Shown here: piece after piece, positions 5,852 through 47,074 of the stretch
Numbering within the stretch: the stretch's first letter is position 1
Layout of the letters: each line of letters opens with the position of its first letter
Position numbers and translations under genes: made by a program
Notes under the pieces: model-generated
What the model was told of the DNA's origin: nothing
What the model saw: the letters and a program-made list of their open reading frames with translations, nothing else
Databases searched by the model: none
Origin: Cyanidioschyzon merolae
Lineage: Eukaryota
Direction: 5' to 3' (one strand)
NCBI GenBank assembly: GCA_000091205.1
Contig: AP006490.2
DNA: 64,000 nucleotides

Positions 5852-5890
5852 CAGCAGCAGCAGCAGCAGCAGTAACAGCAACAACAACAA
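5852..5890. repeat. microsatellite: (CAG)7 followed by (CAA)4-like tract, preceded by duplicated gcaaccgca
   Basis: cagcagcagcagcagcagcag taa cagcaacaacaacaac; intergenic. Confidence 0.9.
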
Positions 5891-20950: not shown

Positions 20951-20961
20951 GTAACGAATTC

Positions 20962-20985
20962 CAGCAGCAGCAGCAGCAGCAGCAG
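20962..20985. repeat. microsatellite (CAG)8 inside R2 copy A
   Basis: cagcagcagcagcagcagcagcag. Confidence 0.9.
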
Positions 20986-21477
20986 CCGCATATCAAAGTG
21001 ACCAATCCGAATAGGCGACCGAGAATTCGAAAACGACGACGCATGAGTCCCAAAGCCCTCATTGCTGCACGCGTATTGCCGAAGCTGTCCATCCGAAAGC
21101 AAGGATTCTTAGAACTCGTGCCCTCTGTAACTGAACAGTCTCGTCATGGTCCCGTCGGGCAAACCGTTTTTCTCGACAATCTCCCGTCTTCTTTTTCAAG
21201 TGCACTCCTTCGCTCTATGATCAGCGAGAAGGGCATTTTATCGTTTTCCACACTGGCATCCGACGATGAAGGCCCTCCAGGATCCCCGACTTCCACGTCG
21301 ATGCCGTTCGCTTGGATCTCTTATTTGTTCAAATGAACGCAGTTTGAACGCATCTGCGATGAACCGCAAAAAAGCGTCTGATGGCATTCGCCTAGATGTG
21401 GAACGCATTGGAGATGTTCATTCTCGAAACGCTCTGCTTCCCTGAACCAACTAGTGCCAGTAGAACGAGTGCTCCCC

Positions 21478-23146: not shown

Positions 23147-24056
23147 TACTCAGTAGTATCGAAGCATGGAACACCGCAATGTTTGACCATTTGCCCAGGA
23201 AAATCGTTGTCTATGGAGGTGTGTATGGCGCTCCAGCCTTGATGCGTTGCAGACCCGTACCACACCAGTGCCTTTTCCTCCTCGCTACTGATTGTTTTCA
23301 TCGAAAGTGTGCGACTTTTCAGCGCAATGTCTACGGTGACTAGAAAGCGATTCCGTCGGATATTCGCGGCGTGCAAAGCCGCCGGACGCTGCGGCAGCAA
23401 GAGACATTTCCCGATCTCGGACGAGTCGCTCAAGTCTCTATTCGGAACTCGCCTGCAAGCGCTGGTGCTGGTGGAGTCATGCCCTAGCAAGCCTCTGACT
23501 TTCGATTGCCTCGCCATCTGGCGTGCAGTCAACTTGCCCTACACCGTCTCGTGTGTCCGGGTGTGTTTCACGCTCTGCGACTCTGCTAGGCTCACGGAGC
23601 GCTCTTGCTTGTGATGCGTTGATCTAGTGCGGGACGCATCGACGGGCGTCGTGCAGCATCGATTGCTGAACGCGTTGTACGCTGGCGTCGAATGAGCGGG
23701 AGTGCACCCTCTGGGAGCTGCGGTGCGTCGATTGCCGCAGACTACCACGAGACGAGGCGACGCATCGGTCATGACCTGGTCCAGTGGCTCGAGCGAGCAG
23801 GCGAAAGCACGTGTCGTGTATCCGTACAACCGAGACGATTGGCAATGCCGTCGCTGCCTCATGTACGCCAGCCAGGGATTGTCAATGGCAGCTATATCGA
23901 CGCTCTTGTGATCTCTGCGTGAAAGACGCATACGAAGCGTTCCAGCGTGTTTGCTACGGTGCTTCGAGCATCAGGATAGGTTCTGAGGCTGTCACTACAT
24001 TTCGTCGTATGCCTGCTTGCAACCATCATACCCGAATGCGGATTACACCGAGCGGT
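23147..24056 (+). repeat. dispersed repeat family R1, copy 1 (3'-truncated relative to copies 2 and 3)
   Basis: Starts tactcagtagtatcgaagcatggaacaccgcaatg. About 98-99% identical to 36869-37945 and 46001-47074; ORF-track peptides are identical bar 3-4 substitutions. Identity ends after ...caccgagcggtg. Confidence 0.85.
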
Positions 24057-26473
24057 GTGAAAAATCGGGCAGTACGATATTGTCTGTCCCGGGCATTCGT
24101 TGTGTTCCCGCATTCTGGCTTGATCGAAAAGGTTCTAAAGGAATCAGGACAGCTGGTAAGCTTGCCTCCGAACCTTGTACAAATACTTATTTAACGAGGA
24201 TCGTCAAGTCGAGGTAAGCTAAAAGTGTCTTCCTAGAATAAGAAGCTATGCGGTATTGAATCTAGTCCTGCATTTCCCTGTTTCTGGGTTGCTCCCCGTT
24301 GGCGTCTTCACTCAGAAAGGCCATGAAACAGTGTACAGACGGTTTATCCTTACACTCTCTGCTCGCCCTCTTTTCGCGGGAATTTCGCCTCCTTTGTCCG
24401 GTGCTTCTTTCTCGCTCTTCTTCTTCTGCTTTACGTGGCTGGGCAGCTCTGATGTGGCCGCTACGCTCCATGCTTGTTCCCTTACCTTGAGATGCAGACG
24501 CACTGGGTAGTCGATATGTCCGAAATTCGTTTCTTTTAAGTGTGTACTTACGATTCTTCTAGGTACTTTCGTCGCCTTCTCCATCGCGAGCACGTCCACG
24601 GACAGCAGCACGGCATGACGCTCCATCTCGCATTCGGGCAGTGTATCCCCAGACCAGTCCATTGCTGGTGAAGACAGATCGAGATTTGTCAAAGAGCGAC
24701 CGGGCACGCTTCGGTGTCCTTGATCCGAACGACTCTTGTTTGGATCCACAAGCGCAGAAATGGCATTTGAAAACAGAGGAAACGCCGTCGACTAGCTTCA
24801 ACCAGGGAGATTAGCACGACACAAACCGCAGGTCACGGCGAGATGAGGCGCATGCACCTTCGCCGCTTCTCTTTGATGGAACCTGACGTGGTCCAAGCAC
24901 AGGACAGAGGATAGCGGCTAGGAGAAGCTACGAACTGCTTCGACGAAGAGAGCGTTGCTGAACAGTCCTCCCTGTTCGGCAGTTTGTAGGAGACGACGCG
25001 ATAGCATCGTTGCTGGGGGTGATAGCGTCGGGGTGCTCGCTTGACGCGTCTTTACGAGCAGCGGATTTTCCGTCTTTGACCGCTTACATCCAGGTACACA
25101 GTGTCCTCCGTCTGCCTTCTCAACGAGTAAGACGAGTACCCCGTTCCTCTTGGTATATAGGTTCCCGTTGCGGTGCGAAAGCGATGGTGTGTGTTTTTCA
25201 AAGCGCGACGGTCACAAGTCGAAGCGTACTTTTTTCGTTCTCCATCTGTGGCTCGTTATCGCGGCTCGCATCAACGATTCGGAAACTTCGCGACGTGTGG
25301 CTTCTTTGATCGGAATTCCGAGAGAAACCATCGGGTGCAATGGATGAACTTGAAGACAGTCCTGTACGCAGACTTTGATCATGCCTATTTTGGGTGCACA
25401 ATGTTCGAAATACGGGCAATGAAAAGGGTGCACCATCCGTCTCCTGATCATAGAATAACTGACTTGTACCAGTTAGGTCGTCTTTCGCAGAACTATAGTG
25501 CCAGTACCATGCACTTCCCACTTATATCCCCAATATATAGGATGCATTCCGTTTGTTGAATACCAGCGAGATAAACAAATAAAAACAAGAATGGCCCGCC
25601 GGCACTGGTGCTCCAGAATTCCCTGTTATGCGTATGAAAAACTTGCACCGAATCGGTGCGAAAGCATTTGCGAACGTTGCTGGCGACGGGAGGTCCTCGA
25701 CCACTGCACACCGTGCGTTCGAGGTAGCTCCCGATTGTCCAGTGTTCCGCAATCCTATTGGCATTCGCTTTCTAGAACGCCGCTCCATTTCGTGCCACGG
25801 GACACGATGCGAGGTCCGGTGCCGAAGCTGGCCTGGCAGCGATAACTCCATCAAACAAATGCGAGCATGCAAGAGTTGCGAAGCGTCCACCATACAAACA
25901 GTCGTCCGCAGGTCCTGCGATAACATCGGGATCAAGGCATTCGGCGCCTGGAAACAGGCAATGCTGCCCCGTGCCAAATCTTGCGCATCATCTGTTATCA
26001 CTAGCATTTTCTCCACAGACAAAGCATTGGCAACTGCACCTGCGTTTCCCGGAGGCACACGCGCAAGGCCAGGAATGCACCTCAGCGCCCGCCATCGACA
26101 AGTTCCAGGTCTGAAAACTCCAAAAAAGCGCATCAGGAAACTGGGGTGTCCACTCGGACACTCTCCTATAGGCGAGCTTCTTGAAGTGCGCTCATGTCAC
26201 ATGCAATGTCACGCTTGAGGTACGCACACGCTTTTCCATTTCCCAACACCGAAACGCCGCCAGTCTGTTTGGAACCTGTTGCAGTGCCTGCTATGCTTCG
26301 ACACCCCTGAACCTGGTTCAGGTCGCGAGCCCTGCCCCAGGGTACGCACGGTGCTAGGCACTGCACCGCACCTGCCGTGTGCGGTATGCACGAGGCGGGT
26401 TCAGTCCAGTGGCGTTCGTACGTGCCCAGCTTCCAGAGTACCCATACTGCACCGTCCCTGGTCCTCTGAAAGG

Positions 26474-26755
26474 TCAACGTCGCGAGCCGTATACCGCTCG
26501 GTTTGCCGGAGAGCACGCCGGGTCGGTGCGCTGCACCCAAAAGGCCACCGCAGCCGCAAGTGTCACACTGGTGAACGCTGCGAAGCGGAAAGTTCGCCAT
26601 CGCTCCACCGGTTCGTAGCCGTGATAGAGTCGGGCCAACGACCAACCTGCGAGCAAACCGCAAAAACCAGTCCACAGGGCTGTTTGCCGAACAATGTCGT
26701 CGCAGCGTGTAGCCGCGGGTCGCATGAGCGGAGGTCGCTCCTCAGAGTTGTTCAT
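26474..26755 (-). CDS. small hypothetical membrane protein (two predicted TM helices)
   Basis: ORF 26474..26794 (GTG; first ATG codon 26753-26755), 94 aa. Two hydrophobic segments (ALWTGFCGLLAGWSLARLY; FAAFTSVTLAAAVAFWV). No homology recognised; could be spurious. Confidence 0.2.
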   Translation of the reverse strand: MNNSEERPPLMRPAATRCDDIVRQTALWTGFCGLLAGWSLARLYHGYEPVERWRTFRFAAFTSVTLAAAVAFWVQRTDPACSPANRAVYGSRR

Positions 26756-27976
26756 GGCTAGTCCCGGGAAACGAACGCGGATCACGACCGGCACCTGGAC
26801 GCAGGACAGAACTCGCGCGACAAGAACCAGGAAGAATCAGCGTAACAGAAAAGCGTCAAGTGGATGAACGTACGCAAACTCTAATGGACTCCGTCGACGG
26901 ACACAAGCAACTGTTCGAGCGCCCGTCTCTGAGGATATCGCATAGCCGAGTTTGTCTCCGCGGAGCATCCTGTGCTGCAACCAGCGTTTGGGAGCGGGCT
27001 CCGCACCCGAAGCGTCCCTGAAACGATCTTGCTCTTATAACGCTTGGAGCAATGGTGCACTAGGGATGAGGGTTCGCTGCAGCATACCCGGAGACACTGT
27101 CGTCGCTGTCCTGGTGTCCGCTCATCGAAGCACACCTAGGGTTTCAGGAACGATCCGTCGATCTTGTAGCTTGAAAAAACATGTGCTACGGGTGTGTTGC
27201 TAGGAGAGCTGGGCAGCGATTTACCCTTTGGGTGCTGCCCGGCATTTGGACACATGCCTCATGCGGTGCAGACTCGTCCAGGTTCTGCACAAGATGATTC
27301 CTGGTTGAGGTCTGTCGGAACTTGAGGGTTCCTGGCTCCTCACGAGGAGCTCACAACGCTGCCTCGACTCGCGTACGGCCGGTCGCAGAGGCGTGCTGCC
27401 CAGATGGGTCATTGTGTTCATCGTGCCGCCTGACACCACGAATATAACGTGCCGCAATCACCCCGTTTCCGGAATACTTTCCGGGCATCGAGTCGAGCAC
27501 GGTCAACGGCGCATCGACACACAGTTTACAGTCTGCTACGCAGCTGGTTACGGCAAAGCGCACTCTAAACTGCGTCCAACAAGCGGGAACAAAAGCTCAG
27601 TTTCCACGCTACCGGGCGCAGCGTCCGTCCCACGAATCCAGCGGTTTTGGGGTCTGAACAAAACGAGTACACCTCGTTTGAGCGCGTTCGTTCCGGTCGA
27701 GTCCGTAACGCTTCTGTGTATCCGTGACGTACCCGTAAGAGACCCGGCTGTTTGGATCAAAGAAAAGCTGCTGTTGCAGCTGCATCGAATGCTCACAGCG
27801 GTTCATCTGGCCCGGTACGCTTCCCGTACAGCCATGCCTGGTCTAACGACACGGTAAGTCGACGCGCGGACTTTTTGCACGGAAGCGCGCATTTCTCTCC
27901 GAGACACTTGCTTCTCAGCAAGTATCCCAGATCGGCGTATCCCCAGAGAGCTCGTTCTCAAGTTTGCGCAGACTCG

Positions 27977-29899
27977 CTACGCCACCTCAGCACCGAGCAC
28001 CCTCCGCCGGAGTAAGTGATACATTGTATAGAGGCCTTGTTCAGTGCCTCCCTCGGGGCGACCAGCAGATGACCCCACAGCGTATGCCATCAGGTCGAGG
28101 TGTATCCAGACTGGGGATCCGCGAGCGCTGCCGTCTGCTGCTTTGGCGGCGGGTGCCGTCTCCGGCGACTGCCGACTCGGGAGCGCCTCTCGACCAGTTT
28201 GCACAAACTCTGCAAGGTACAATGCTGCGAGAATCGCACCAGCATACGGACTATCACCGATATTCTGAATATCAGCTACTTTGCTGCGCAGCATTTTGCG
28301 GTAAGCACGATGCAGCGGCATGTGCCAAACTGGGTCACCGAGAAGCGATCCCAATTCCATCGCTTCTCTTGCGACTTGCTCGTCGGAGCAGAACAGTGCA
28401 GGCAGGTCGGTGCCAAGGGCAACACGTGCAGCACCCGTCAAGGTTGCAAAGTCAACAATGTACTGTGGATTCAGTTCCATCGCATAGGCGAGAGCATCCG
28501 CTAGAATGAGTCGACCCTCGGCGTCGGTGTTGCCAACCTCCGTGGTCATGCCGTTTCGTGCCGTCAGGATATCTCCCGGCCGAAGCGCATCCCCCGAAAT
28601 GGCATTCTCTACGGCGGGCAGTAGTACACAGAGCCGATGTCTCTCTGCCAGCTGCGGATCCGAACGCAGCAGGTTCGCCAGACCGAGAACATGTGCAGCA
28701 CCGCCCATGTCCTTCTTCATCAGCCGCATCGCCTGCGCGGGTTTGATGTCGAGGCCGCCACTATCAAAACATACGCCTTTGCCAATTAAAACGATAAGCG
28801 GCTTGGATGCATTCGGTGACGATGACGACGATGGTGGTGATCGTGATGGCGATCGGCCTTCCGGTAGCGGAAAATGCATCTCTACGAGACGCGGCGCATG
28901 ACGCGAGGCAGCCGCCCGACCCACGGCGTAGATCTGGGGAAAGTTCGCGGTGCGAAGTGCCTCTCCGATGATAGCACGACAGCTGCCTCCGTATCGATCA
29001 GCAAGTGCTCGTGCACAGGCCTCTAACGCGGCCGGGCCCAATTGCTCCGCCGGCGCATTAATCAGGTCCCGCACGAGGTAAGCGGCCTCTGCAAAGCTCT
29101 CCACCATCTTCGTCTCGTCCGACACCTGCCATTGAAGTTGACGCAAGGCCCGTGGTTCCCTTGTCTTGTAGGCGTCGAATGTGTAGGTACCAAGCGCCCA
29201 TGCTAGGGCGATGGCAGACGGCGGGAGTCCAGCGCAGCCACGTCGCAAAGCATACGCACCTGGAGGTATTCGAGATGGAATCGCTGCCAGAGGCCAAGGG
29301 ACCCGCAGCAAATCACTCGAACATACATAGTCCGTGCGTACGAGTACGCTCCATGGCGCCTGCGGTATCCCGGACCCGGAAGATGCCTCCTCAGCGCCCG
29401 CAGCCGACGATAGCGACGGTGACGGAATGCATTGGCAGAAGAGGTCCCCGGTATCCGTGTTTGCCACGGACGAGAGGGTTTCCACGGTGCGAAGCCATAC
29501 CTGTAGTCCTTCAGGCTGCTGTGCCAGCCAGGCATCAAAGCCTCGGCTGCTGAATAGGTCAATTGGCGTGGTACAGGTTGCAGAAGCCGCCGCACACCAG
29601 CTCTGGCGAAAGCGTCCGGCGTATGCCAGCACTCGTTGGCCCCAGGCTAGCAAGAGCTCTGGCGTGCTTTCGTCAGGGACATATTCACTGAAAGGAGTTC
29701 CCGCCTTGGCATAAATATGGAATAGTCTAACGTGTCTACTGTGGGAGAGCGAATGCCAGTTGGCGATGTAGCGAGTTCGAACGCGACCGCGTGCCCGCAA
29801 GTCTGGTACGTCCGCGCGGAAGCTGCCACAGTTCGACTGGAGAAACGCGTTCCGGCGTTCAGAACCTAGACAAGAAGCTGGACGTACCCACGCACGCAT
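27977..29899 (-). CDS. leucyl aminopeptidase, peptidase family M17
   Basis: ORF 27977..29902 (TTG; ATG codon 29897-29899). M17 signature NTDAEGRLILADALAYA plus GKGVCFDSGGLDIKPAQAMRLMKKDMGGAAHVLG. Long N-terminal region with a Ser/Pro-rich insertion. Confidence 0.85.
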   Translation of the reverse strand: MRAWVRPASCLGSERRNAFLQSNCGSFRADVPDLRARGRVRTRYIANWHSLSHSRHVRLFHIYAKAGTPFSEYVPDESTPELLLAWGQRVLAYAGRFRQSWCAAASATCTTPIDLFSSRGFDAWLAQQPEGLQVWLRTVETLSSVANTDTGDLFCQCIPSPSLSSAAGAEEASSGSGIPQAPWSVLVRTDYVCSSDLLRVPWPLAAIPSRIPPGAYALRRGCAGLPPSAIALAWALGTYTFDAYKTREPRALRQLQWQVSDETKMVESFAEAAYLVRDLINAPAEQLGPAALEACARALADRYGGSCRAIIGEALRTANFPQIYAVGRAAASRHAPRLVEMHFPLPEGRSPSRSPPSSSSSPNASKPLIVLIGKGVCFDSGGLDIKPAQAMRLMKKDMGGAAHVLGLANLLRSDPQLAERHRLCVLLPAVENAISGDALRPGDILTARNGMTTEVGNTDAEGRLILADALAYAMELNPQYIVDFATLTGAARVALGTDLPALFCSDEQVAREAMELGSLLGDPVWHMPLHRAYRKMLRSKVADIQNIGDSPYAGAILAALYLAEFVQTGREALPSRQSPETAPAAKAADGSARGSPVWIHLDLMAYAVGSSAGRPEGGTEQGLYTMYHLLRRRVLGAEVA

Positions 29900-31141
29900 C
29901 AAATCTTTCAGATGAGGCTACGGGTTCTTTGCAGGTACCACCGATACTTCTGTGCTGCGAACCGAGTTCGACGCGGACCCGAAAGACGTCGAAACGCCCT
30001 GCAGCGTCGACGGCATCGCGCCTCGGGCTGGGCATCCTCCCGGTGCCGACTTCTGGTGTTGGTGCGTAGCGGCGTTGTTCATCCTCGCAGTGCAAGGCAT
30101 GGGGCAGCAAGCATTTGTAGCAGCGCGCCGCCGTGCATGAACGTGCTGAAAAGTCGCGCTGCCTCGAGGTCGCGGCTTCAGCAAGGCCTCCAGCGTCACA
30201 CCATGTACTCAAGATGTGCTCGTCGTTGCGCTAATGAACGCAAGCTTTTGGAGCGATCGAACCTGTAGCCCCTGATGGGAATATGCATCTGGGCATCCCG
30301 AAGCATACAGGCGTCTAGAGCGGAACGATAGGACGCTTCTCAGCGTGCCGGTAGCGATGGGGTATCAACGGGATTCACGTTTGATGCATCGACCTTGTAC
30401 GATAAAGCTTTTGGTGTCGGTGTGTGCAGGTATGCGCTGTTGTAGAGGCTGCACATGCAATGCATGCATCCAGACCAAGAAAAACAATGCTGAAGAGCAT
30501 AGCTGTATCCTCGCGAGCGCTCGCAAGCAAGCGCGATATCGTCCCGGGTCATGCACCTGCGAAGATGCACTGGACTATGCAGCGCTGATCCGTTCAGGCC
30601 GTTCTAGAGTCCCGCAAGCGATACCGTTCACCCGCAAGAACGCGAAACACCGGTTTTTCCGAGTCGCATTGCATTCATCGACAAAAGCAGTCATACCACC
30701 AACGATTAGAACCGAGCCTGTGCTTCATGGATGCGACTTGAACCCATTCCTCAATCACAGTCGCTTGCATGCCCTCCAAGTACTGGAGCACAACATCCAG
30801 CACCCGTTGACCTGCCGTGCTATTCGAGAGCTTACGTCCAGAGTTTCCGAATGTTACACCGCAGTAGGAGTGCCCGTTAGAAAGCTGATCTCCATGAGGT
30901 TGCAACGAAGCTGCTCCGCGGAACGTGCGACGGCGGCACCGGGGTTCCCGGGCGCTCCGGAAGCCGCTGATGACAGGCGCTTCCCCCAGTGGACCCTGCG
31001 AAATGACCCTGAACTTGAGAGAGAAGTATGGTGCACGGCTCATAAAACCTAGAGCTAATGTTTAGAATGATGGACGCTCTCGCTATATGTCATCCATGAT
31101 AGCGCCAGCGATGATCTCCAATTCATCTGGACGATCTATCG

Positions 31142-31984
31142 ATGAGCAGGTCGCATGAGGCGACGATCCCCCCTGCTCGTGGATTCAGCAGCAGCAGCGG
31201 CGGCGGCCTGAAAACATCCACCCCCGCATCCCTGGAACTGCTCTACGCGGCTGCTGCGGCTTCTGATCCGTTCGAAGGTATCGCCAGTGCCATGTCGTTT
31301 ACGAAACACCTGCTCATGCACAACTGCGACGTATGGACGCCGGACTGGTATAATCCAACGCAAGATCCGCAGCTTGGGACGACTATCATGGCTGTGGAGT
31401 ACGACGGCGGGGTGGTGCTGGCCGCTGACTCTCGAACCTCCACCGGTACCTACGTAGCGAACCGTGTCTCCGATAAAATCACTGCCGTTGCACCGCCGTA
31501 CATCTACTGTGCTCGTTCAGGCTCTGCAGCTGATACGCAGATGCTCGCGGACACGGTGCGGCGGTACGTCACCGCGCTCGCCTTGGAGACGCAGCGCCCG
31601 GCCACCGTACGAACGGCAGCAGCACTCTTCCGTGAACTGATCTACCAGAATAAGAGCCGTTTAACTGCTGGTGTGATTTGCGCTGGCTGGGACCCCCTCA
31701 ACGGTGGACAGGTATACTCGATCACGCTGGGGGGAACGCTGGTCCGCCAGCCGTTCTCAATCGGGGGTAGCGGGAGCACCTACATCTACGGATACTGCGA
31801 TGCGTCCTATCGTAAAGGGATGAATCGGGAGGCATGCATTGCATTCTGCCAGCAGGCAGCATCGCTTGCCATGGCAAGAGATGGCAGCTCTGGTGGCGTC
31901 CTACGAATGGTATGCATTGAGGAGAGCGGTGCGCAGCGTCTCTTGTTTACGGAGGATCAGCTTCCGCGCGGTTGGCAGGGGTAA
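31142..31984 (+). CDS. PSMB6: 20S proteasome subunit beta type-1 (PSMB6/Pre3-like, catalytic Thr1 after propeptide)
   Basis: ATG at 31142. TTIMAVEYDGGVVLAADSRTSTGTYVANRVSDKITAV is near-identical in pattern to beta-1 subunits ([30 protein letters not shown]). Propeptide precedes the Thr. Confidence 0.9.
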   Translation: MSRSHEATIPPARGFSSSSGGGLKTSTPASLELLYAAAAASDPFEGIASAMSFTKHLLMHNCDVWTPDWYNPTQDPQLGTTIMAVEYDGGVVLAADSRTSTGTYVANRVSDKITAVAPPYIYCARSGSAADTQMLADTVRRYVTALALETQRPATVRTAAALFRELIYQNKSRLTAGVICAGWDPLNGGQVYSITLGGTLVRQPFSIGGSGSTYIYGYCDASYRKGMNREACIAFCQQAASLAMARDGSSGGVLRMVCIEESGAQRLLFTEDQLPRGWQG

Positions 31985-34712: not shown

Positions 34713-36868
34713 GCGCGATCAGGTGCGAGGAGCCAGGCTCTATTGCTGGAAGTGGCGCTCGTGCGTTGTCAGCACGCCCTCGATCTGGAAATGCGATTTC
34801 GAAAGTGTGTCCGAAGCCTTTTGCACTTGCCAAGCTCGTGGACGAACGAAGGTCAACAGGAGGAGAGAATCCCCAGTCTCTGTGTTCTGACGGATCAGAG
34901 CGGACACGTTCCACTATTCTCTTGACTCTGGATTGATACAGTGGCCTCGAGCAAATCCTGTTTTCAAGGCCACTCAGCGCCGCATGCGGCAGTCTGGCAC
35001 AGAGCAGCCAAACGGGCACGCGTCGCCGTCACCGCAGCAGTAACGGGAACTTTGGTCACGAGTTTCCCCCGGAGACTGGAAACAGCCTCGAACCCGTGTT
35101 TGTTTGGTGAGCGGTAAGCACCAGAGAAATAAGACGCGCGCAGCAGTCCGCCCCGTGTCCGTAGCTGCTCTGTTTGACGCGCGTCACAGGGACTCGGAGC
35201 GCTCTACCGACCACAGCTAGCGACCAACGAGCAGCGAGGCTCCTCGCTGGCCGCAGCGAACAGTTGCCTAAAGCGATGCGTTATCGGTGCGTGCAGGCGC
35301 CGAGATGAAGAGCGCTCCAGCCCCAACGAAGTCACGCGCGGAACCAACAGGCCGTGTAAAGAAGTCGCTCAACACACACACACACGTTCTTGGTCTACGA
35401 CGGCCAGTTTCTTGCCCTATTGATTCCTTAAGCGTTCTCCAGGCGTTTCCCGATAACCCAAGACTAGTGGCAAACTATACACTACTGGGCCCGAAACCGA
35501 GTTCGAGAGTCATGCAACCGTCTGACCGAATCGCGAGCTTCGGCAACGCCGGGTGTCGCGAAGACTTGTGGACAAAGCGGGGGATGTGCTGATTCCTAAT
35601 TGAGGGTGTTTTTGGCGCCAATTTTCATGAGGCGCCTTGGGAGCGCTCCCGAGATGTGCGCTCCTTCTTTCGGATTGCATCTTTCCTGCTCTACAAGACG
35701 TTTCCATGGACCATGGATCCCAGACTGCTCACTTGGTAGCAGCATTTGGAGAAGCATCCTTCATTCTGCACGCTAGCTTCAAGTTCTATTCCTTGAAGTC
35801 CCAGTCGAAGATACCGGACGTTCCTCACGTTCAACAGTCGTGCGCAACGTGCCAGCCACGGGCGTTCGCCATAGCGCCTGTGGCGCCACTGCGTTCATAG
35901 GACGGAGACAGAACGGCATTGTAGTACCACTGGGGGCGTCGGCTCGAGGTTCGGATTCCTATCGCATTAGATTCGCAGAAATCTCGGCGATGCTGTGCTA
36001 ATCCGTGAGCGATCACGCGGCTGTGCTGCTCGCACGTCGCGCGATATGCGTGATCTTGGATAGCGCGCTCCAGTGGTGCACTGCAACGTCATGCTCTGCC
36101 GAACAGAGACTTTGTGTTCAGTCGTCTCAAATCAGAGCATTCTACGGCATACGAACACGAGTATCGGTTGCGGTGCTATACAGAACCTATGACCGTCTTT
36201 GGACCAGGTGCGACTGCTGTGGAAAACAAGCGCCTCTTGGATGGAGTTTCGCAACACTCCCAATAGTGCGGTGGACTCGAAGCATCCGTTCGAACGGCAG
36301 GGTTGCATCTGGAGCGACCTTCGATCGAAGTCATGTTCCACGCGTATCTGCGTGCTCGGCTCCGGTTTGGTGCCTCTGTTCCGTGCAGAGGCACCTGAAG
36401 CGATTGGGACGCGAGACTCGGTGCGCGACCAACGTATGTGCCACGGGCGAACAGCCGCGACTTTGTTTCTGGAATGTTTAGCAGGATCCGGTATGCGATA
36501 CAGAGAAAACGAAAGCCTCCTTGATGATGTATTGGCGACGCTTTGAGGCGTAACGCGGATCTACGAACTGGTGCGCACCAGCAACCCCATTCTAGAGCAG
36601 TCGCTTTGCCTTGATCGCTGACATGAGCTCAGAGCCATGCATCTGCGGCATGGGAACCAACGATCATGCTCCTTAGAAAATTATCTTGCTTGTGGTTTGG
36701 ATAGCGGCCTCAGCATATTTCCATAAAAGTTCCCAGAAGGCCCAGCGCGTGCTCCTACGGGTTTTTCGCTGCCGATGCGATTCGGCCGCCACGTCGCACG
36801 TTGGGTTGCATCCCGTCGCGCGAGGCTTCCGAGCCTCCTGCAAAAGAAACTATTGCAGGAGCTAGATA

Positions 36869-37945
36869 TACTCAGTAGTATCGAAGCATGGAACACCGCA
36901 ATGTTTGACCATTTGCCCAGAAAAATCGTTGTCTATGGAGGTGTGTATGGCGCTCCAGCCTTGATGCGTTGCAGACCCGTACCACACCAGTGCGTTTTCC
37001 TCCTCGCTACTGATTGTTTTCATCGAAAGTGTGCGGCTTTTCAGCGCAATGTCTACGGTGACTAGAAAGCGATTCCGTCGGATATTCGCGGCGTGCGAAG
37101 CCGCCGGACGCTGCGGCAGCAAGAGACATTTCCCGATCTCGGACGAGTCGCTCAAGTCTCTATTCGGAACTCGCCTGCAAGCGCTGGTGCTGGTGGAGTC
37201 ATGCCCTAGCAAGCCTCTGAGTTTCGATTGCCTCGCCATCTGGCGTGCAGTCAACTTGCCCTACACCGTCTCGTGTGTCCGGGTGTGTTTCACGCTCTGC
37301 GACTCTGCTAGGCTCACGGAGCGCTCTTGCTTGTGATGCGTTGATCTAGTGCGGGACGCATCGACGGGCGTCGTGCAGCATCGATTGCTGAACGCGTTGT
37401 ACGCTGGCGTCGAATGAGCGGGAGTGCACCCTCTGGGAGCTGCGGTGCGTCGATTGCCGCAGACTACCACGAGACGAGGCGACGCATCGGTCATGACCTG
37501 GTCCAGTGGCTCGAGCGAGCAGGCGAAAGCACGTGTCGTGCATCCGTACAACCGAGACGATTGGCAATGCCGTCGCTGCCTCATGTACGCCAGCCAGGGA
37601 TTGTCAATGGCAGCTATATCGACTCTCTTGTGATCTCTGCGTGAAAGACGCATACGAAGCGTTCCAGCGTGTTTGCTACGGTGCTTCGAGCATCAGGATA
37701 GGTTCTGAGGCTGTCACTACGTTTCATCGTATGCCTGCTTGCAACCATCATACCCGAATGCGGATCACACCGAGCGGTGGAAAATTCTGAACAGCATCCT
37801 TTGCTTTCCGTACAAGTGTTTGGCGGCGGCTTATTGATTTAAGGGTTCAGCGACGGTCATGATGTTCTTAAACCTGGGATACACGCGCAGCACCAAAGCT
37901 CTTTCAGCATCTACCATCATCGGTTGAAAATGAGTCCCGATGCTG
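36869..37945 (+). repeat. dispersed repeat family R1, copy 2 (full length, about 1.08 kb)
   Basis: Same 5' end as copies 1 and 3; shares an extra roughly 165 bp 3' segment with copy 3 (...ggaaaattctgaacagcatcctttgc...catcatcggttgaaaatga). No recognisable protein in any frame. Confidence 0.85.
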
Positions 37946-39505
37946 GGCTCAGGCCAAAGCATCACGAGCTTCTTGCACTTCATACAGATTGTGATTCCGT
38001 AGGTCTCCCACTGCACTCTAACCTGCTCTCGAGTTCCTCGCTGGAAACCAGAAGTCTCGAACGGGCTCAACCAATGCTCATTGCGAGGCTTTTCGGATGC
38101 ATCTTACATCTTCGCAGAGACCAACGCCTTAAGAGCCATCTCTTTTACGCGAAGAGCTGGCATGGACGCCGCCCCTATACTCCGTATCCGTGTTTCCTCT
38201 GGATTCAGACGCACTGGGTGAATCGTGAGGCAAAAGCTCGAATTTCCTATCTGACCATTTTCTTCAATGCATCAACCTTTCGTCAAAGGCCAGGTTCATG
38301 GACCGAATCGCGCCTTTCCCGCTAACTACCGCACACGAGAAGACAAACATCCGAGCAGCTCAGGCCTGGTGATATCTCCAAAGAACGATCTGTCGAAGAA
38401 CAATGTCCCGAATGCGAACGACTCGCCAATGGATCGGTGAGCGTCAGAATAGCGGTTGACAAGCATGAAGACAACATTCACTGGACGGAATGAGGGAAAC
38501 CGGCTGGCTCGAAGAGCACATCAGCGCCAGTCCCCGTCGCATATTCCTCGACTTCTGTTGCGTGATGGATATTGGCCTTGTCCTAAAGCGCTACGGAACA
38601 ATCCAGCAAGCAGGTGCAGCGAACTGCTCCGACGAAGGACTCGCATGTTCAGCGATTCTGTCCGTTTGGCGACTGGTAGACGACCCAACGAGAGAGCATT
38701 GCCACCAAGGCTGATGCTCCCGGAATGCTCGCGTGTCTCTTCTTGACGTACAGCGGGTTACCTGTCTTTGAGCACCCATCTACCGGTCTACAGTTTCCTA
38801 GAAATAATGCCTCATTGAATGGGATGAGCACCCATTCCTCTCGTGATGAACGTTCGTATTTCCATCCGAAATTGGCAGGGTGTCGTGCAACGCGCGGCGG
38901 TCGCTCATAAAAGTGTGCGTGTTCCTTCGTGTACCAATGTTGCTTCTTCACCGTTCGCGTCTGCAGCACGAAAACTGGACATACTGTCTCTTATTGGTCG
39001 CGTCTCCGATACAACTTGAACGGTATGGATAGACGAGGAGAGAATCTTGCAAATCGAGGGTCATGCATACTGTCTGAGATGCACGATGTTCAGGATACGG
39101 GCCTCGAGGGAGGTCGTTCGTCTTCCTGGTGCATGTGGAATGTCTGACTGACTGACTTGTACAAATAAGACCGCTTTCTTTGTAGACGAGCAATGACCAC
39201 AGCATGCCGCTCCTCGACCCGTCTCCAGTTCCCATTACACAATTCTGATTTTGAATACCTGCGAGGAAAACAAAGAAAAATTAAAAGTACTTATTGGTAA
39301 AGGTGCGCAACAACGCACTGCCCAAGAGATAACGTCGCGCAACGGCCAACGGACTGGACTTGGGTTCCTCAAACAACCTGACCTTGGATACGGGGAGCCG
39401 ACTCGGCGTTTCGCGAGCCTGACGCCCGGTCCCAGCCGTGCGGTAGCGAACGTGTGTTCCGGGGGAGGCCCCTGTTCGCCGTGGGTGTCGTCGTCGACGG
39501 ACACC

Positions 39506-41149
39506 ATGCCGTCGGTGGACACCAGCTCGGACGCTGACGGAAAGTCAACGCCTATTCAGGTCGCACGTGGCCTTTATAACTTTCTGCGAGTGGTTGGCGG
39601 GACGAATTACGAGCGGTCGGCGCTGGTAACAGATTTAAGTATTGGACTTGCGCTTCTGATCCAACGCAAAGAACGGGAACGAGAGCAAGAGCGAGAATCG
39701 TGGTTGGCAAGTCTCGAGAGAGAGCAAGTGCAGCTCGAGGCAGCGGAACTCAAGCGACTGCACCACTTTGCCCGACTAGCGCACGGTGCCTACAGCGCCA
39801 ACGACGAGGAGCTCTTCAAGCATACACCGGTGTACGCGAAGACGCTCTTGAAAGCGCGGTGGTCCAGCAGTCAAGAAGAGCCAGCCTATTACATTGCAAT
39901 CGACGAAGCCTTCCGTTCGATCGTGCTAGCTATCCGCGGAACCGATACGTTCTCTGATGTCTTCACGGATTTGAGTTTACATCCAACGCCGTTCCTGGGG
40001 GGCACTGCGCACGCTGGAATGACCCGTGCTGCTCTGCGACTCTACGATGAGGTCAGGGAAATGTTGCGGACAGCGCGCACAAACTATCCAGAGTACGACC
40101 TGGTTTTTACGGGGCATTCGCTAGGTGGAGGCGTTGCCTCTATCCTCACGATGAAACTCTTATGGGAAGACGATCCGCTGCTCCGCCTCTTCGAACAGCA
40201 CAACCGACCGAAGCTTCTTGCATATTCATACGGAACGCCTGCCTGTGTATCCCTCGAACTGGCGAGGAAAATTCAGGGGAGTCCTCCCGACCTGCGAGAC
40301 GCATTGACCACCGTGGTGCTCGGAGACGATCTCGTTCCACGGGCATCCGCCGCGAGTATGGATCGTATCGTGCGGGAGCTTGCTGCATTTAACTGGCGAG
40401 AACAGATCGCGAACGAGTTTAGCGAATATGTGAATACGAGCAGCCTTGCGCGCTGGTCACAGCATGTTATCCGTTGGTCTATCCCGCGGGACCAGGTGCA
40501 GCGCTTTGTCACTGAGATCGGGCAACGGCTGAGCAAAGCATCCTCGTCGATCAAAGGTGCGCGCCTCGGAAATACGTTTGGCCTTGTAGCAGCGGTAGCC
40601 GGCAGTGCCTCTGGCTGGATGAACTGGTATGGGAACCTTTTCCAGAAAGAGCAGCCGCAGGAGCGAGAAGCAGTGAATAGGGCTGAACCTCGACTTGCCG
40701 AACCGGTAGCGCTTCCGCAGTTCTACCCGCCAGGCGGTTGCATCTGGCACCTCCATGAGGTGTCACTGCGAGCGGGGGATCAGCGAGGGCTCCCTGAAGG
40801 CGCCGCCTCAGAACATGGAAGGGTGCGCCAACAGCTCGTCCAAGACATCTCGAATATTAGTCGTGAGGTATGGAACGAATTGCCGACGCTCAAGCAGCCC
40901 AACGAGTCTCCCGAGGCTCCCGGCAACGACTGGGATCGCTCCAATGCGCCCGAGGATGCTGCTGAGAGCATTGGTGCGGAGCCTCAGCGTCTACTGCTTC
41001 TCCGAACATCACCAGACGCTTTTCATGACATCGTGCTCAGCCGTCGCTGCTTCAATGATCATCTCATGCGCAATATTCGGCGCGCACTGGCAAGACTCTA
41101 TGAACAGCAGTACAGGCAGCCACGGCTCGGCGAGCATGGATCCAGTTAA
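39506..41149 (+). CDS. class 3 (fungal-type) lipase / alpha-beta hydrolase, possibly DAG-lipase-like
   Basis: ORF 39251..41149 (TTG; first ATG 39506). Lipase_3 motifs: IAIRGTDTFSDVFTDL and the nucleophile elbow FTGHSLGGGVASILTMKL. Confidence 0.7.
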   Translation: MPSVDTSSDADGKSTPIQVARGLYNFLRVVGGTNYERSALVTDLSIGLALLIQRKEREREQERESWLASLEREQVQLEAAELKRLHHFARLAHGAYSANDEELFKHTPVYAKTLLKARWSSSQEEPAYYIAIDEAFRSIVLAIRGTDTFSDVFTDLSLHPTPFLGGTAHAGMTRAALRLYDEVREMLRTARTNYPEYDLVFTGHSLGGGVASILTMKLLWEDDPLLRLFEQHNRPKLLAYSYGTPACVSLELARKIQGSPPDLRDALTTVVLGDDLVPRASAASMDRIVRELAAFNWREQIANEFSEYVNTSSLARWSQHVIRWSIPRDQVQRFVTEIGQRLSKASSSIKGARLGNTFGLVAAVAGSASGWMNWYGNLFQKEQPQEREAVNRAEPRLAEPVALPQFYPPGGCIWHLHEVSLRAGDQRGLPEGAASEHGRVRQQLVQDISNISREVWNELPTLKQPNESPEAPGNDWDRSNAPEDAAESIGAEPQRLLLLRTSPDAFHDIVLSRRCFNDHLMRNIRRALARLYEQQYRQPRLGEHGSS

Positions 41150-41737
41150 AACGAGGGTCTGTGCAGAGCCGCATCGCGACGCGGAAAAAACTGTATTCTA
41201 AGAGAATTGGCACCTGGAAAGGTGCGGTGTCAACGTATGAACCGGATGAGCAGAGTTCCCGTGGCGCCAAGGGTGCTCGGGTTCAAGTCAGGATCAGCGT
41301 GGATATCGTCTGTTTTCTGGATGGAAACTCTGGATTCGGTCTCGCAGAACATCGATGCATCCGCGGCGGAAGAGAGGCATCGTTGCTGGTCACCGGCAGC
41401 AGTCCTGGGTCCGCGGCAGTCTGGTGCGAGCCGTTTGATCCTGCAGCATAAAAATCGAAGCAGATATAGCTGCGCGCTGTGAAAGGTCTTTCCGCATAGG
41501 CAACGGGTTCGAGTCCACGCGAGGAAACGCAAGCGCTGACATCGTCCAGCGGCAACGCCCTCAAAGCACGTCTTGACAAAACGGCTCGCAAAATGGCCCA
41601 CTTTATTCGGCGGACGATCGCTGCGACACAGCTCCGCACGCTTCCGCATGCAACTCCAAAGGCGCTGCACAGTTCCAGCTCTTCAAACGCAAAGCCGCTG
41701 GATGCCTTTCATTTGACCCGCACGGGCGGTCGAACAA

Positions 41738-42709
41738 CTACGGACATGCCTCAGCGAAGAGCTGCATCTCAAACTGCATCGCCGGTGCATACGCTATTTC
41801 ATTCAACTGCTGAACCAAACGCTCTAACGTTTCAGAGGTCGCACTGCACCATTGCTCCGCGTACAAGTCAAGGAGAAGCTCAAAGCTTTCCGCCAATTCT
41901 TGAAATTTTGGGCTGGAATACGTGGCCACCCATGTTGCGCGGGCGCTCTTCCTAGGGTCATGGTCATCTGCGGCCTGTATATGGACCGACAGCTTTCTCC
42001 CAATGAACGCATAGAGCGACATGCACGGTACCATAGCGGCTACGAGCAGCAAGCGTGCTCGTCGCCAGGATGCTTCCACTGGAGCGATTCCGCCTTGCTC
42101 CTCATGGAATGCACCACTAGCGTGTATGAGCTCCTCTAAAAGTCCACGACTGTGACGCATGAGGAGTCGAAGATATCCCTGGCAGACTTTATGCAGTGCA
42201 GGGGCGCTGTTCTGCCTATTTGTCGACGAGACTGAGCGCGTCGCAGTCGCAGTCGGAGCCGCAGCCGCAGCCACCAGCTGCTGTGCCCCGTGTTTGGCGG
42301 CGACCTGTTCTTGGGCAGAAACGCTTCCACGCTCGGCGGCTATGGCGTGGCTTAACTCGGCGAGCACCTGGTGCTCCCAGCCTGTTTCGGCGGTGAAGCA
42401 GAGCAGACCCAGGCACCGCCAGTAGCCTGCTAGGAACTCAGTGTCAACGGAGAGGAAGCTAGCCAAGTTCGATTCCGATAAAGTACCTTGGGCCAATTCG
42501 CGAAGCCACGACGTCTGGAGTGCTTGCTCGATTACCGCAGAGTTTGACTGCCACAAAAGCTCGCTAGCGCAGGTCATAAAAAGCCTCTGGAATAGCAGGC
42601 AGCGAGGCGCGTTTCTTCCGGTTCGAGACGCTCCGACAAGGCCTTTCGAGAGCAAGAGAGGTTTAGACGGTTTTTGCTCGTGCGACGTGACGTTAGATAC
42701 ACGTTGCAT
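41738..42709 (-). CDS. TenA/THI-4 family protein (thiaminase II / aminopyrimidine aminohydrolase-like, haem-oxygenase-like fold)
   Basis: ORF 41738..42724 (GTG; first ATG codon 42707-42709). MVPCMSLYAFIGRKL aligns to the TenA LLPCYWLYYEVG block including the catalytic Cys; WVATYSSPKFQELAESF aligns to WIGTYGGDWFRQQVEE; the C-terminal AMQFEMQLFAEA aligns to the YEYQFW block. Confidence 0.55.
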   Translation of the reverse strand: MQRVSNVTSHEQKPSKPLLLSKGLVGASRTGRNAPRCLLFQRLFMTCASELLWQSNSAVIEQALQTSWLRELAQGTLSESNLASFLSVDTEFLAGYWRCLGLLCFTAETGWEHQVLAELSHAIAAERGSVSAQEQVAAKHGAQQLVAAAAAPTATATRSVSSTNRQNSAPALHKVCQGYLRLLMRHSRGLLEELIHASGAFHEEQGGIAPVEASWRRARLLLVAAMVPCMSLYAFIGRKLSVHIQAADDHDPRKSARATWVATYSSPKFQELAESFELLLDLYAEQWCSATSETLERLVQQLNEIAYAPAMQFEMQLFAEACP

Positions 42710-43194
42710 GCAAGCTGTGGTCACCGTTCACGCCGACTGAATACCGCAACCCCATGCTTCAGTTGCGCTTCCCCGGTTCAAGTGTTAAGGTCGATAGGCC
42801 GTGGAGTGGTTGCGTTTTTATTGGCTCGGAATCTCCGCTGCAAGCAAGCTATTCAACTATTTGGCGCTGCGTCTGGTGTTTTTCTTGAAATGCCCAGTCT
42901 CGTACTCTACCCGTATGAGAATAAAACGGAACTGGTCCAGTAAGCAGAGTTGGGCATACGCTCGAGATTTTGAATGTGTGCCCGGCATGTTCAAAACAAG
43001 TCCATGCGGGATATTCTCTGACTGCATTCGTTACCCCGCTCGTCTCACAAGCTGTGCATACGTCGGTCTCTCATGTGCTTCCAGCTCCGTCGTCGTTATT
43101 GGAGTAAATCTGATGGCAGCGTTTTAGTTCGGACGTCGCTGCATCCGACTGTAGTCTATGCATTACACGCGCCAGCGGGCGTTGCGATCCACGC

Positions 43195-44100
43195 CTCATT
43201 TGCCATGCTCAGCTTCTTTATAGACAGTCCCGATGCAGTCGCCAAAGCGGTGACACTTGATTATGGTTAGCTGCGCTCACATGCTCACCATACAAGCCGT
43301 CTCTCAGCGAGCGGCCTCTGTGGCGCCTGAACGCTTACTCCATCACGCGGTAGATGTCGGTTTCTGGGTCAGAAGGCCCGCCTCGATGCTCGAATCTGTT
43401 TTTCGCTGCCAATGGCTTGCCCTCCGTCACGGGCTTCTTCGTTGCGATCCACTCGGCGAGTACTCTGTCCGTTGCACGCTCGTACACACACTGTCCTACT
43501 CGATAGAGGATTTCCAGGACATGGTGCTGTCGATGATGAAATAAGTATCGAGTGGAAAATCCAGACTGGAGAACAAGTAGAGAAATCCTGATGCGTGTGC
43601 GCTCCCTTCGTGCAACGCAATGGTGCACGCTGCACTAGAAGCAATTGCTTCGACGAATTGAACCAAAGTCCAAGGCCTTTTCCCATGCAAGCTGAAGAGA
43701 CGGGAGCTTCTGCTTGCGTGTCGCGTGCCAGGCACCATGTTGCTGTCGAATGCCGTTTCCTAGAAAGTTCCAGTGAGAGAGAGGGGCGTGTTGGTATTTC
43801 CCACGGAATCGATTCCTCTAGTTGATAGCTTCAGCATACTTGTGGGATGCGCTTATGGACAAGTCGTCAAGGAATTACATCAAGTTTTGTTGCTCGTCGT
43901 ACCAGCAGCACGAATCGCCGCGCCGTCGACTTGCCCCGACACAGCAACATCAAAAACTTGAAGAATATGCGATTTGAGCGTCCCATACCCAAGGAAACGA
44001 GAAACGTGGAGGCTTGTACATATTCGTTGGACCACGATATCGACTACAATATGAATACTGGTTCGAGGGCATCCCCAATTATCTTGATTTCGGTGGCGTC
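43195..44100. repeat. dispersed repeat family R2, diverged copy B
   Basis: See copy A. 43195-43330 also aligns with the sequence just outside the left inverted-repeat arm (tcatttgcca...cagcggtgacacttg...). Boundaries approximate. Confidence 0.6.
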
Positions 44101-44498
44101 TTCAATGCCATCAGCAGCGCCTCTAAGCAGCCACACCGAGAACACGACCGAGACTCCCGGAACGACGTATGAATCCGTAAGCCCATGGTGCTGCACTTTG
44201 ATGTCGAGCATCTATATTTTGAACAAGATCGAAAAAGTTTGAAATGATGGAACAGAACGAACAAGACAGTACCCTAAATTTACCGTACACGGATGTGCAA
44301 CACTCCTGCACCATGCGTGTGACGCCACGCAACGCCACGCGTGGCTACGCTACCCGCGACGCGCCAGCGAGGTTGCACGTGCTGTTGCAGCGGGCGCTTG
44401 CGTTGAGCGCGTTTCCCTCTTTTTCTTCAGCCGTTACTCTGCAAGTTTCTGTTCCGTGAACGTTTCCTTTTGAATCATTGGGCACTCTTGCGTTCGCC

Positions 44499-45998
44499 AT
44501 GGACGGATTGTGGGCACGGAAGGACGGCGGAAACGGTCTTGTGGACGAGCAGGGACTCCGTGCACCACTCTCGGGTGGACTCGGTTGGGAGTCCAGGATG
44601 CGTTCCCGCTGGAATGACTGGCTGCGCAAGCTCGACGTTTACCCCAAGACTGTCGAGGACGTGCGCTTACGTTCTGTGACAGGAGGCATCATCGCTTTAT
44701 TTTCGTACATTTGCATCGGTATTCTGGTCGTTTCAGAGTTTCTGCGGTGGTTGCAGCCCCAGCTCCACTCTAACGTGCTCGTGGACGCGCGCTCGATTCT
44801 CGATACCGAGCCAATCACGGTAGATCTGGGCATAGATCTCCTCGCTGTCGGTTGTGACGAGTTTAGCCTTGACGCGCTCACTGCGAACGGCGCGCAGCTC
44901 CCCAACAGTGTTGTGGAGCTGCGTAAACGCCCATTGGATGCGAGCGGTCAACCTGTGATATTTCCCCGAGGTGCATTCGGACGCAGTCGTCTGCGGAACG
45001 AGCGAGGTGGCGTAGCGCCAGCACCTCAGGCGCTAACGGAAGACCCGCCAAACACACAGCAACTCGAAGGGCGAGTATCCCAGGAAGTACGCGCGCAACT
45101 GAAACAGTATCGCGAAGAGGCGATAGCTTTCCGTGATCGCCTTGCAGCGTTGAACAAGACCGGTGTTGCGTATTGTGGCTCCTGTTATGGTGCTGTGCCT
45201 CAAACAGATCAAGTCGGGGAGGCGAATCAAATAACGTCCGGAGTATGCTGCAACACCTGTGATGAAATTCGCGTCCTGTACGAGGAACGGAACTGGGCAT
45301 TCGATCAAGTGCTTCGAACGGCGGAGCAGTGTGCTGAAAAACGCTACTTGACGCTGCTTCACGAAGCCGGTCGTGTTCAGTCTGGTGGCTGTCGAGTGTC
45401 CGCACGTTTACAGCTACCACGGGTGGCGGGCAACTTTCACTTTGCTCCGGGCAAGGGCCATACGCACCGTATGGGCCATCATGTTCATTCGGTAGATGAT
45501 CAGTTGCTCCACCGCACCTATAATTTCTCGCACCGTATTCGGCATTTGCGGTTTGGTCCGCTGTTCCCGCACCAGCAGAATCCACTTGACGGCGCGATGC
45601 GGATTCTGGAGCAACCGCCGCCGGGGTCACCTTTTGGCAACATGGTGCTGTATTATTGCAAGCTTATACCGACAACATACCGTCGAGACCGCCAGCGCGG
45701 CGACGCACTTCGATCGATGGAGTACGCAGCCGCAGACCTGACACAATCATCGGAACAGGATCGGGTGGGAATCACGCATAGTACGGGTGCATTGCCAGGA
45801 ATATTCTTTTTTTACGAACCTCAGCCTTTGCAAATCGCGTACTTTGAAGGTCGGATGTACGGTTTGCTGCATTTCATCGTCCAGCTATGTGCCATTGTTG
45901 GAGGCGTTTTTACCGTAAGCAGTATGATCGATCGTTTTGTATTTGGGGCGGGAACCTTCATTCGGGCGCAGAAGCGCCGGCTCGGCAAGCTTGGGTAA
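44499..45998 (+). CDS. ERGIC3: ERGIC3/Erv46-family ER-Golgi intermediate compartment protein
   Basis: ORF 44478..45998 (TTG; first ATG 44499). N-terminal LRKLDVYPKTVEDVRLRSVTGGIIALFSYICIGILVVSEF (ERGIC_N plus TM); lumenal Cys-rich domain (YCGSCYGAVP...CCNTCDEIR); a C-terminal TM and FGAGTFIRAQKRRLGKLG tail. Confidence 0.8.
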   Translation: MDGLWARKDGGNGLVDEQGLRAPLSGGLGWESRMRSRWNDWLRKLDVYPKTVEDVRLRSVTGGIIALFSYICIGILVVSEFLRWLQPQLHSNVLVDARSILDTEPITVDLGIDLLAVGCDEFSLDALTANGAQLPNSVVELRKRPLDASGQPVIFPRGAFGRSRLRNERGGVAPAPQALTEDPPNTQQLEGRVSQEVRAQLKQYREEAIAFRDRLAALNKTGVAYCGSCYGAVPQTDQVGEANQITSGVCCNTCDEIRVLYEERNWAFDQVLRTAEQCAEKRYLTLLHEAGRVQSGGCRVSARLQLPRVAGNFHFAPGKGHTHRMGHHVHSVDDQLLHRTYNFSHRIRHLRFGPLFPHQQNPLDGAMRILEQPPPGSPFGNMVLYYCKLIPTTYRRDRQRGDALRSMEYAAADLTQSSEQDRVGITHSTGALPGIFFFYEPQPLQIAYFEGRMYGLLHFIVQLCAIVGGVFTVSSMIDRFVFGAGTFIRAQKRRLGKLG

Positions 45999-46000
45999 TA

Positions 46001-47074
46001 TACTCAGTAGTATCGAAGCATGGAACACCGCAATGTTTGACCATTTGCCCAGAAAAATCGTTGTCTATGGAGGTGTGTATGGCGCTCCAGCCTTGATGCG
46101 TTGCAGACCCGTACCACACCAGTGCGTTTTCCTCCTCGCTACTGATTGTTTTCATCGAAAGTGTGCGGCTTTTCAGCGCAATGTCTACGGTGACTAGAAA
46201 GCGATTCCGTCGGATATTCGCGGCGTGCAAAGCCGCCGGACGCTGCGGCAGCAAGAGACATTTCCCGATCTCGGACGAGTCGCTCAAGTCTCTATTCGGA
46301 ACTCGCCTGCAAGCGCTGGTGCTGGTGGAATTATGCCCTAGCAAGCCTCTGACTTTCGCTTGCCTCGCCATCTGGCGTGCAGTCAACTTGCCCTACACCG
46401 TCTCTTGTGTCCGGGTGTGTTTCACGCTCTGCGACTCTGCTAGGCTCACGGAGCGCTCTTGCTTGTGATGCGTTGATCTAGTGCGGGACGCATCGACGGG
46501 CGTCGTGCAGCATCGATTGCTGAACGCGTTGTACGCTGACGTCGAATGAGCGGGAGTGCACCCTCTGGGAGCTGCGGTGCGTCGATTGCCGCAGACTACC
46601 ACGAGACGAGGCGACGCATCGGTCATGACCTGGTCCAGTGGCTCGAGCGAGCAGGCGAAAGCACGTGTCGTGCATCCGTACAACCGAGACGATTGGCAAT
46701 GCCGTCGCTGCCTCATGTACGCCAGCCAGGGATTGTCAATGGCAGCTATATCGACTGTCTTGTGATCTCTGCGTGAAAGACGCATACGAAGCGTTCCAGC
46801 GTGTTTGCTACGGTGCTTCGAGCATCAGGATAGGTTCTGAGGCTGTCACTACATTTCATCGTATGCCTGCTTGCAACCATCATACCCGAATGCGGATCAC
46901 ACCGAGCGGTGGAAAATTCTGAACAGCATCCTTTGCTTTCCGTACAAGTGTTTGGCGGCGGCTTATTGATTTAAGGGTTCAGCGACGGTCATGATGTTCT
47001 TAAACCTGGGATACACGCGCACCACCAAAGCTCTTTCAGCATCTACCATCATCGGTTGAAAATGAATCCGGATG
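46001..47074 (+). repeat. dispersed repeat family R1, copy 3 (full length); begins 3 bp after the ERGIC3 stop codon
   Basis: Near-identical to copy 2 over about 1.07 kb. Its 5' end lies immediately 3' of the ERGIC3 TAA (45996-45998), i.e. inside the presumptive 3' UTR. Confidence 0.85.

Follow-up and report, generated by a model that had tools for sequence, protein, structure and literature searches.

The genome of Cyanidioschyzon merolae is usually cited as containing about 0.7% transposable elements. In other genomes, dispersed repeats are known to undergo ectopic gene conversion and concerted evolution, as described for Ty and delta sequences of yeast, primate Alu elements and segmental duplications. 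For C. merolae, Nozaki et al. (2007, PMC1955436) reported eight class II elements with weak similarity to transposases of bacteria, as well as an element of 3.2 kb, present in 253 copies, whose open reading frame (ORF) is WSV486-like. Bao and Jurka (2013, PMC3627910) described the repeats CMe-1A (Fanzor1) and TE-N2_CMe, the former of which, by a link that we infer, is probably the 253-copy element. In this study we analyzed a 64,000-nucleotide stretch of C. merolae 10D chromosome 8 (the window), in which an original prediction made from the letters alone had noted three near-identical copies of an unclassified element, R1. What looked like a young element of its own appears to be one end, since homogenised, of an ancient DNA transposon.

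The existence of the three copies in the same orientation was confirmed by self-BLAST and repeat finding. Copies 2 and 3 (36866-37942 and 45998-47074) are 98.9% identical over 1077 bp, and copy 1 (23147-24063) is identical to 98.8% with copy 2 (36869-37784) and to 98.5% with copy 3 (46001-46916) over 917 bp, all on the plus strand. In a three-way alignment, all copies start sharply at TACTCAGTAGTATCG, directly preceded by ATA in copies 2 and 3. The proposed identical 5′ end was thus recovered, as was the extra inner segment of copies 2 and 3 that is absent from copy 1 (noted as roughly 165 bp; ~160 bp in our alignment). The 20-mer of the R1 terminus has three sites within the window, all of them R1 copies, with 0 expected, and the outer flanks of the copies are mutually unrelated. 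All six R1/flank junctions were found again in independent metagenome and Logan contigs ~99% identical to the window, which shows that the copies are not an assembly artefact. Apart from the fact that the repeats do break and scramble metagenome assemblies, nothing speaks for an artefact of the reference assembly, and with all junctions recurring this reading is refuted and retains practically no weight.

The units align over their entire length, R1 part included, to family members from unrelated C. merolae-type loci (L025, L028, and L030); the E value is about 1e-48 for R1 alone, and the element length is 2.2-3.5 kb. The homology ends exactly at the outer edge of R1, which identifies this sharp edge as the 3′ terminus of a transposon. 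The conserved 3′ end has the form ...GGTGTTCCAT.ATTCGATA...CTG.G; in relic A, TA at positions 23147-23148 is followed by CTCAG. Checked for a target-site duplication on the 3′ side, six of six copies had TA at the terminus or a few bases from it. An inverted match of the terminal 20-mer was not detected when up to 3 mismatches were allowed, and aligning the ends locally gave nothing convincing; a short TGGAAC-type core is common to the regions near both element ends.

Beyond the inner edge of R1, the homology of the three loci goes on for ~1.1-1.5 kb at about 55-58% in a low-stringency comparison. A poorly alignable stretch of 0.3-0.7 kb is followed by a block of 0.75-0.87 kb with 57-59% identity in all three pairs, whose longest minus-strand ORF remnants correspond to each other in position. 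The differing flanks had been taken as a sign of independent insertions; the flanks differ on the outer side only, the inner side being homologous at a level too weak to be recognised by eye. As a word-indexed protein search with a profile of these remnants returned only the profile itself, an exhaustive search against 1.84 billion representative proteins was needed, and this gave 26 protein clusters at E ≤ 1e-3. The full-length matches are ~300-residue proteins with a helix-turn-helix (HTH_Tnp_Tc3) and a DDE_3 (PF13358) domain, and one of the clusters includes C. merolae CMF169C. The profile A2 matched P0168 (E 2.5e-12), P0189, and P0193, which themselves score 1e-23 to 1e-27 on PF13358. When the matched transposases were searched back against the window by tblastn (E 1e-8 to 5e-17), minus-strand relics were located at 25499-24682, 39306-38380, and 48160-47440, with a fourth at 49653-48825. 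A direct Pfam scan of the ORF pieces in the window gave no match, the DDE_3 membership being transitive via the profile matches.

All three units thus contain a decayed transposase 270-590 bp past the inner edge of R1, on the strand opposite to that on which R1 had been noted. The motifs ...DN..H... and ...PYSPWFNPIE... are discernible in decayed form, with stops and a replaced catalytic residue. The D-block regions contain 2-5 in-frame stops each in the best frame, and at the position of the catalytic E they have D, N, or a stop context. An intact ORF with the catalytic DDE triad is absent from each relic, and stop codons occur in all four relics of the window. RIP-like hypermutation (repeat-induced point mutation) of the transposase part was considered and rejected, the ratio of transitions to transversions being ~0.8-1.0. 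In the 1.5-2.5 kb after the transposase, tblastx revealed no clear frame preference and Pfam no domain, the latter also in the longer copies L025, L028, and L030; a single 88.6-bit match at about 37651-37959 stands out. Judged from these homologies, R1 is the 3′-terminal ~1 kb of a dead IS630/Tc1/mariner-type (DDE_3) transposon on the minus strand and not an unclassified element of its own, the transposase remnant lying just outside the segments originally delimited as R1.

The resemblance to the IS630/Tc1/mariner superfamily comprises the matches to ~300-residue proteins with helix-turn-helix and DDE_3 domains, the spacing of 34 residues between the second D and the E in the intact relative P0193, the decayed but recognisable PYSPWFNPIE motif of the relics, and a TA at most a few bases from the resolved terminus of every copy. 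The family differs in the length of its units (2.2-3.5 kb), of which the 1.5-2.5 kb following the transposase appear to be non-coding, and in that all copies in the window are dead. The family can be placed in a known transposon superfamily as a new member, decayed and with one end homogenised locally. The relics may belong to the eight class II elements of Nozaki et al. (2007): the genome is the same, IS630-type elements are the bacterial relatives of DDE_3, and weak similarity fits decayed relics, although the 64-kb window alone holds four of them. CMe-1A and TE-N2_CMe are likewise old, abundant, unclassified interspersed repeats of similar age in the same genome, but they encode a TnpB-like Fanzor protein rather than a transposase. 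An assignment of the R1 family to the 253-copy WSV486-like element was rejected, as that element is probably CMe-1A and neither R1 nor the longer family copies yielded a Fanzor or TnpB signal.

R1 was also examined on its own. Its ORFs have no Pfam match; a 264-codon frame on the minus strand is interrupted by one stop and has a codon-usage score at background level, and a 76-residue ORF on the plus strand has no relatives in the protein database. A coding role was rejected on these grounds, in agreement with the earlier statement that R1 has no recognisable ORF. Rfam gave no match at the gathering threshold or even at E ≤ 1, ARAGORN found 0 tRNAs, and the folding of 200-nt windows on both strands was unremarkable, with minimum free energy z-scores of -1.0 to +1.7, so that a known RNA or a structured non-coding RNA gene was rejected as well. 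Inverted and direct repeats within the unit were limited to chance-level matches, and the reported lack of terminal inverted repeats therefore stands. The proposed free-standing unit of SINE-like, MITE-like, or non-coding RNA type does not, given that R1 forms the terminal ~1 kb of an old relic that extends further. A short interspersed element (SINE) was rejected because no pol III-type head was found, there is no tRNA or A-rich tail, and 1.08 kb is far above SINE length; a miniature inverted-repeat transposable element (MITE) was rejected in view of the missing inverted repeats, the three copies found, and the size of 0.9-1.1 kb. R1 itself has no detectable function, and its consequences are passive.

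How a decayed transposon came to have near-identical ends is indicated by the distribution of identity among six family copies. Over the transposase part, identity is 52.6-56.9% for every pair and 53.1-55.1% among the three neighbours in the window. In the R1 part, the neighbours are 98.4-99.0% identical and every other pair 53-60%. The three units are therefore old, independent insertions of which the last kilobase alone is uniform. Near-identity of the trio is confined to this kilobase of otherwise diverged units; as in a gene conversion tract, weak homology continues past the near-identical segment, beyond 24063 and 37942/47074, and the inner ends of the tracts differ (917 versus 1077 bp). 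This discordance between the R1 part and the transposase part suggests ectopic gene conversion or concerted evolution. A decayed segmental duplication as the origin of the units was rejected, since the outer flanks are unrelated. Of the earlier alternatives "recent spread or conversion", the second is the one that agrees with the identity pattern.

We consider dead DDE_3 relics whose terminal kilobase was homogenised between linked copies to be the best explanation of the whole, with a probability of roughly 0.7. The identity and extent of the element and the discordant identities are its directly observed parts, and the process is most likely gene conversion, as far as it can be read from the sequences. 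Copies of an old DDE_3 transposon would have inserted separately, each beside a TA, after an FKBP-like gene, between a helicase and a lipase gene, and at the ERGIC3 stop codon. All three would then have decayed, family pairs now being ~53-60% identical. The three neighbours share one orientation and are located within 24 kb of sequence; their ends would have been homogenised by non-reciprocal homologous recombination among linked copies, in the form of ectopic gene conversion and perhaps in repeated events. Outwards, the tracts would stop where homology stops, at the transposon terminus, and inwards at variable points. C. merolae recombines direct repeats efficiently and has very efficient homologous recombination (PMC8504449). 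The R1 direct repeats flank apparently indispensable genes (M17 aminopeptidase, proteasome subunit, helicase, ERGIC3); crossovers between the repeats would delete such genes, and only non-crossover outcomes should persist. A near-identical tract in diverged paralogues, variable tract ends, close copies, and no visible crossover products are features shared with ectopic conversion in yeast and primate repeats, from which the present case differs by a background identity of 53-60%, far below the usual level, and by a process that is deduced from sequences.

Several points weigh against homogenisation by conversion. At 55-60% identity recombination would hardly start, as it normally needs much more; either the tract was kept uniform continuously since the copies were young, or breaks at the element terminus were repaired from the neighbour. 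The 5′ terminus of the family and its inverted repeats were looked for and not recovered. The figure of only three copies comes from metagenome contigs and an exact 24-mer and not from the complete 10D genome. The mosaic of variants among strains, described below, could stem from collapsed short-read assemblies.

The low background identity, which is below that expected for classical recombination, is accommodated better if the tracts were copied by break repair or replication template switching, with a broken terminus repaired from a neighbour or copied via microhomology. Such an origin would also explain why every tract has its outer end precisely at the element terminus while its length towards the inside varies. 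The terminus is, however, also simply the point where homology ends, and the window contains no active transposase of the family, four of four relics having stop codons; we regard this route as unlikely. Still somewhat less probable is a domesticated non-coding module (a long non-coding RNA gene, a terminator or promoter block, or a chromatin element) kept identical by its use. R1 is the sole well-preserved part of the relics and copy 3 must supply the 3′ end of ERGIC3, but the negative Rfam, folding, and coding results argue against such a module, and the genomic setting is different for each copy, one being 3′ of a gene, one in a divergent promoter region, and one in a convergent gap. Furthermore, the divergence between strains is higher in R1 (0.9-1.7%) than in the flanks (0-0.8%), which indicates that R1 is not under special constraint.

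Three recent insertions of an independent, non-autonomous element would account for the sharp identical outer ends, the ~99% identity, and the different outer flanks. R1 is, however, homologous and in register with the terminal kilobase of family copies elsewhere, so that all three insertions would have had to hit the homologous position of an old relic in the same orientation. No fourth junction was found among the metagenome contigs with the exact 24-mer, and inverted repeats, an A-tail, a pol III-type head, and a tRNA are lacking. We hold this possibility to be highly improbable. Only marginally more credit is due to a broader proposal in which R1 is either kept identical through a role, as a shared terminator, an antisense-transcript module, or a co-opted chromatin block, or is a still-mobile fragment copied specifically onto the termini of old relics by a recombination-based route that needs no transposase.

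For the copy search, JGI metagenome contigs were scanned for an exact match to the first 24 bases of R1. Six contig segments were obtained, each with one of the three known upstream flanks, and a fourth upstream junction was not found in these contigs. Within this material, the copy number thus remains at three near-identical copies. The original prediction had named as its counter-case that only three copies exist and sit in a larger segmental duplication; the first half agrees with the scan, whereas for the second the copies do belong to larger homologous units, which are three separate old transposon insertions and not one duplication. The R1 units are absent from the syntenic loci of Cyanidiococcus yangmingshanensis and another relative, in which gene order is kept and the corresponding intergenic gaps measure ~1.3-1.8 kb versus 4.7-4.8 kb in the window. 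The R1 copies of other strains were not grouped by locus, a pattern that mixing of copies by short reads could also give; copy 3 of strains L008 and L009 was no closer to copy 3 of 10D than to copies 1 and 2, and their short-read assemblies may have mixed the copies.

Many metagenome contigs end at the R1 edge. In L001, L011, L013, and L024, the R1 flanks are joined in an order permuted relative to window positions 23147-47074 (upstream flank 3 with downstream flank 1, upstream 1 with downstream 2, upstream 1 with downstream 3), and one 46-kb contig is compatible with a swap of two inter-repeat segments. An interpretation of these joins as structural variants was rejected, because they are equally valid assembly paths for three direct repeats. 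In L020:1620-7383 (JGI 3300050388), ERGIC3 is followed by the first 109 bp of R1 only and then by unrelated ROK-family and RsmB-F methyltransferase genes, which is due to chimeric assembly of this contig or to a rearrangement in the population sampled. Three 1-kb direct repeats with 99% identity matter for genome stability and for the design of gene targeting at these loci, and short-read assemblies visibly break and permute at them.

A second old repeat family is represented in the window by six copies (Table 1) with 58-65% pairwise identity and no Pfam match in their ORFs; a weak HTH-like tblastn match was obtained at 53532-53696 and 55318-55482. This family may be CMe-1A or TE-N2_CMe. In three of the copies, the distance between the end of the repeat and the start codon of a downstream plus-strand gene is 235-480 bp. 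The family contains an inverted pair, 52902-53803 and 55212-56112, with 97.8% identity over 902 bp, which flanks a conserved 223-residue gene at 54284-54955. In a further case, positions 1-191 and 6414-6604 are directly repeated with 97.4% identity over 191 bp, cut by the window edge. A young tract within an old repeat is thus seen twice in this family, which supports homogenisation as the explanation for R1. By the sum of coordinates, old repeats occupy at least ~14 kb of the 64-kb window. These observations show that C. merolae carries many unrecognised, deeply decayed transposon relics and suggest that neighbouring relics exchange sequence.

Table 1. Positions of the R1 copies, transposon relics, and other features in the window
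Feature	Position	Strand	Remarks
R1 copy 1, homogenised terminal part of relic A	23147-24063	-	917 bp; 23147 is the 3′ terminus of the element
Relic A, remainder	24064-25595	-	Decayed DDE_3 transposase ~24682-25499; stops, mutated catalytic residue (...LRFVSC*SPWLKLVDG...); 53-57% to other family copies
R1 copy 2, homogenised terminal part of relic B	36866-37942	-	1077 bp
Relic B, remainder	37943-39290	-	Decayed transposase ~38380-39306; end ~215 bp upstream of lipase start codon (39505)
R1 copy 3, homogenised terminal part of relic C	45998-47074	-	1077 bp; begins at last base of ERGIC3 stop codon
Relic C, remainder	47075-48180	-	Decayed transposase ~47440-48160 (...FEKVTVHH...LHFVPTYAPGSAP*...)
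Fourth, more distant DDE_3 transposase relic beside relic C	48825-49653	-	Without R1 tract; 71% identical to copy in L028:16-856
ERGIC3 coding sequence	44499-45998	+	C. merolae BAM79826.1; Pfam ERGIC_N and COPIIcoated_ERV; 3′ flank is R1 copy 3
Second repeat family	52421-53803	+	
Second repeat family	55212-56112	-	
Second repeat family	42905-44264	+	
Second repeat family	20153-21070	+	
Second repeat family	5300-6677	-	
Second repeat family	1-306	-	

R1 copy 3 directly adjoins the ERGIC3 stop codon, as had been predicted: it begins at the last A of the TAA (45998); counting from TACTCAG moves this start 3 bp downstream. The C-terminus of ERGIC3 (...RAQKRRLGKLG) is kept in two related algae, which indicates that the coding sequence was left untouched. 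With respect to the suggestion that copy 3 supplies or disrupts the 3′ untranslated region, this copy does constitute the sequence that flanks ERGIC3 on its 3′ side and leaves the coding sequence intact. At 21478-22221, the encoded protein is identical to BAM79820.1 of strain 10D, as is the ERGIC3 protein to BAM79826.1. The five accessions between them match five recognisable genes (M17 peptidase, proteasome subunit, helicase, lipase, and TENA-like), from which it follows that no protein is annotated in the R1 regions.

Further intergenic repeats were observed in the window. One small old family comprises 35631-35956, 51921-52171, and 61621-61937 with 62-73% identity, and another consists of 21099-21345 and 48485-48739 with 66.5% identity. 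At 14517-14652, a 68-bp intergenic unit is tandemly duplicated with 87% identity.

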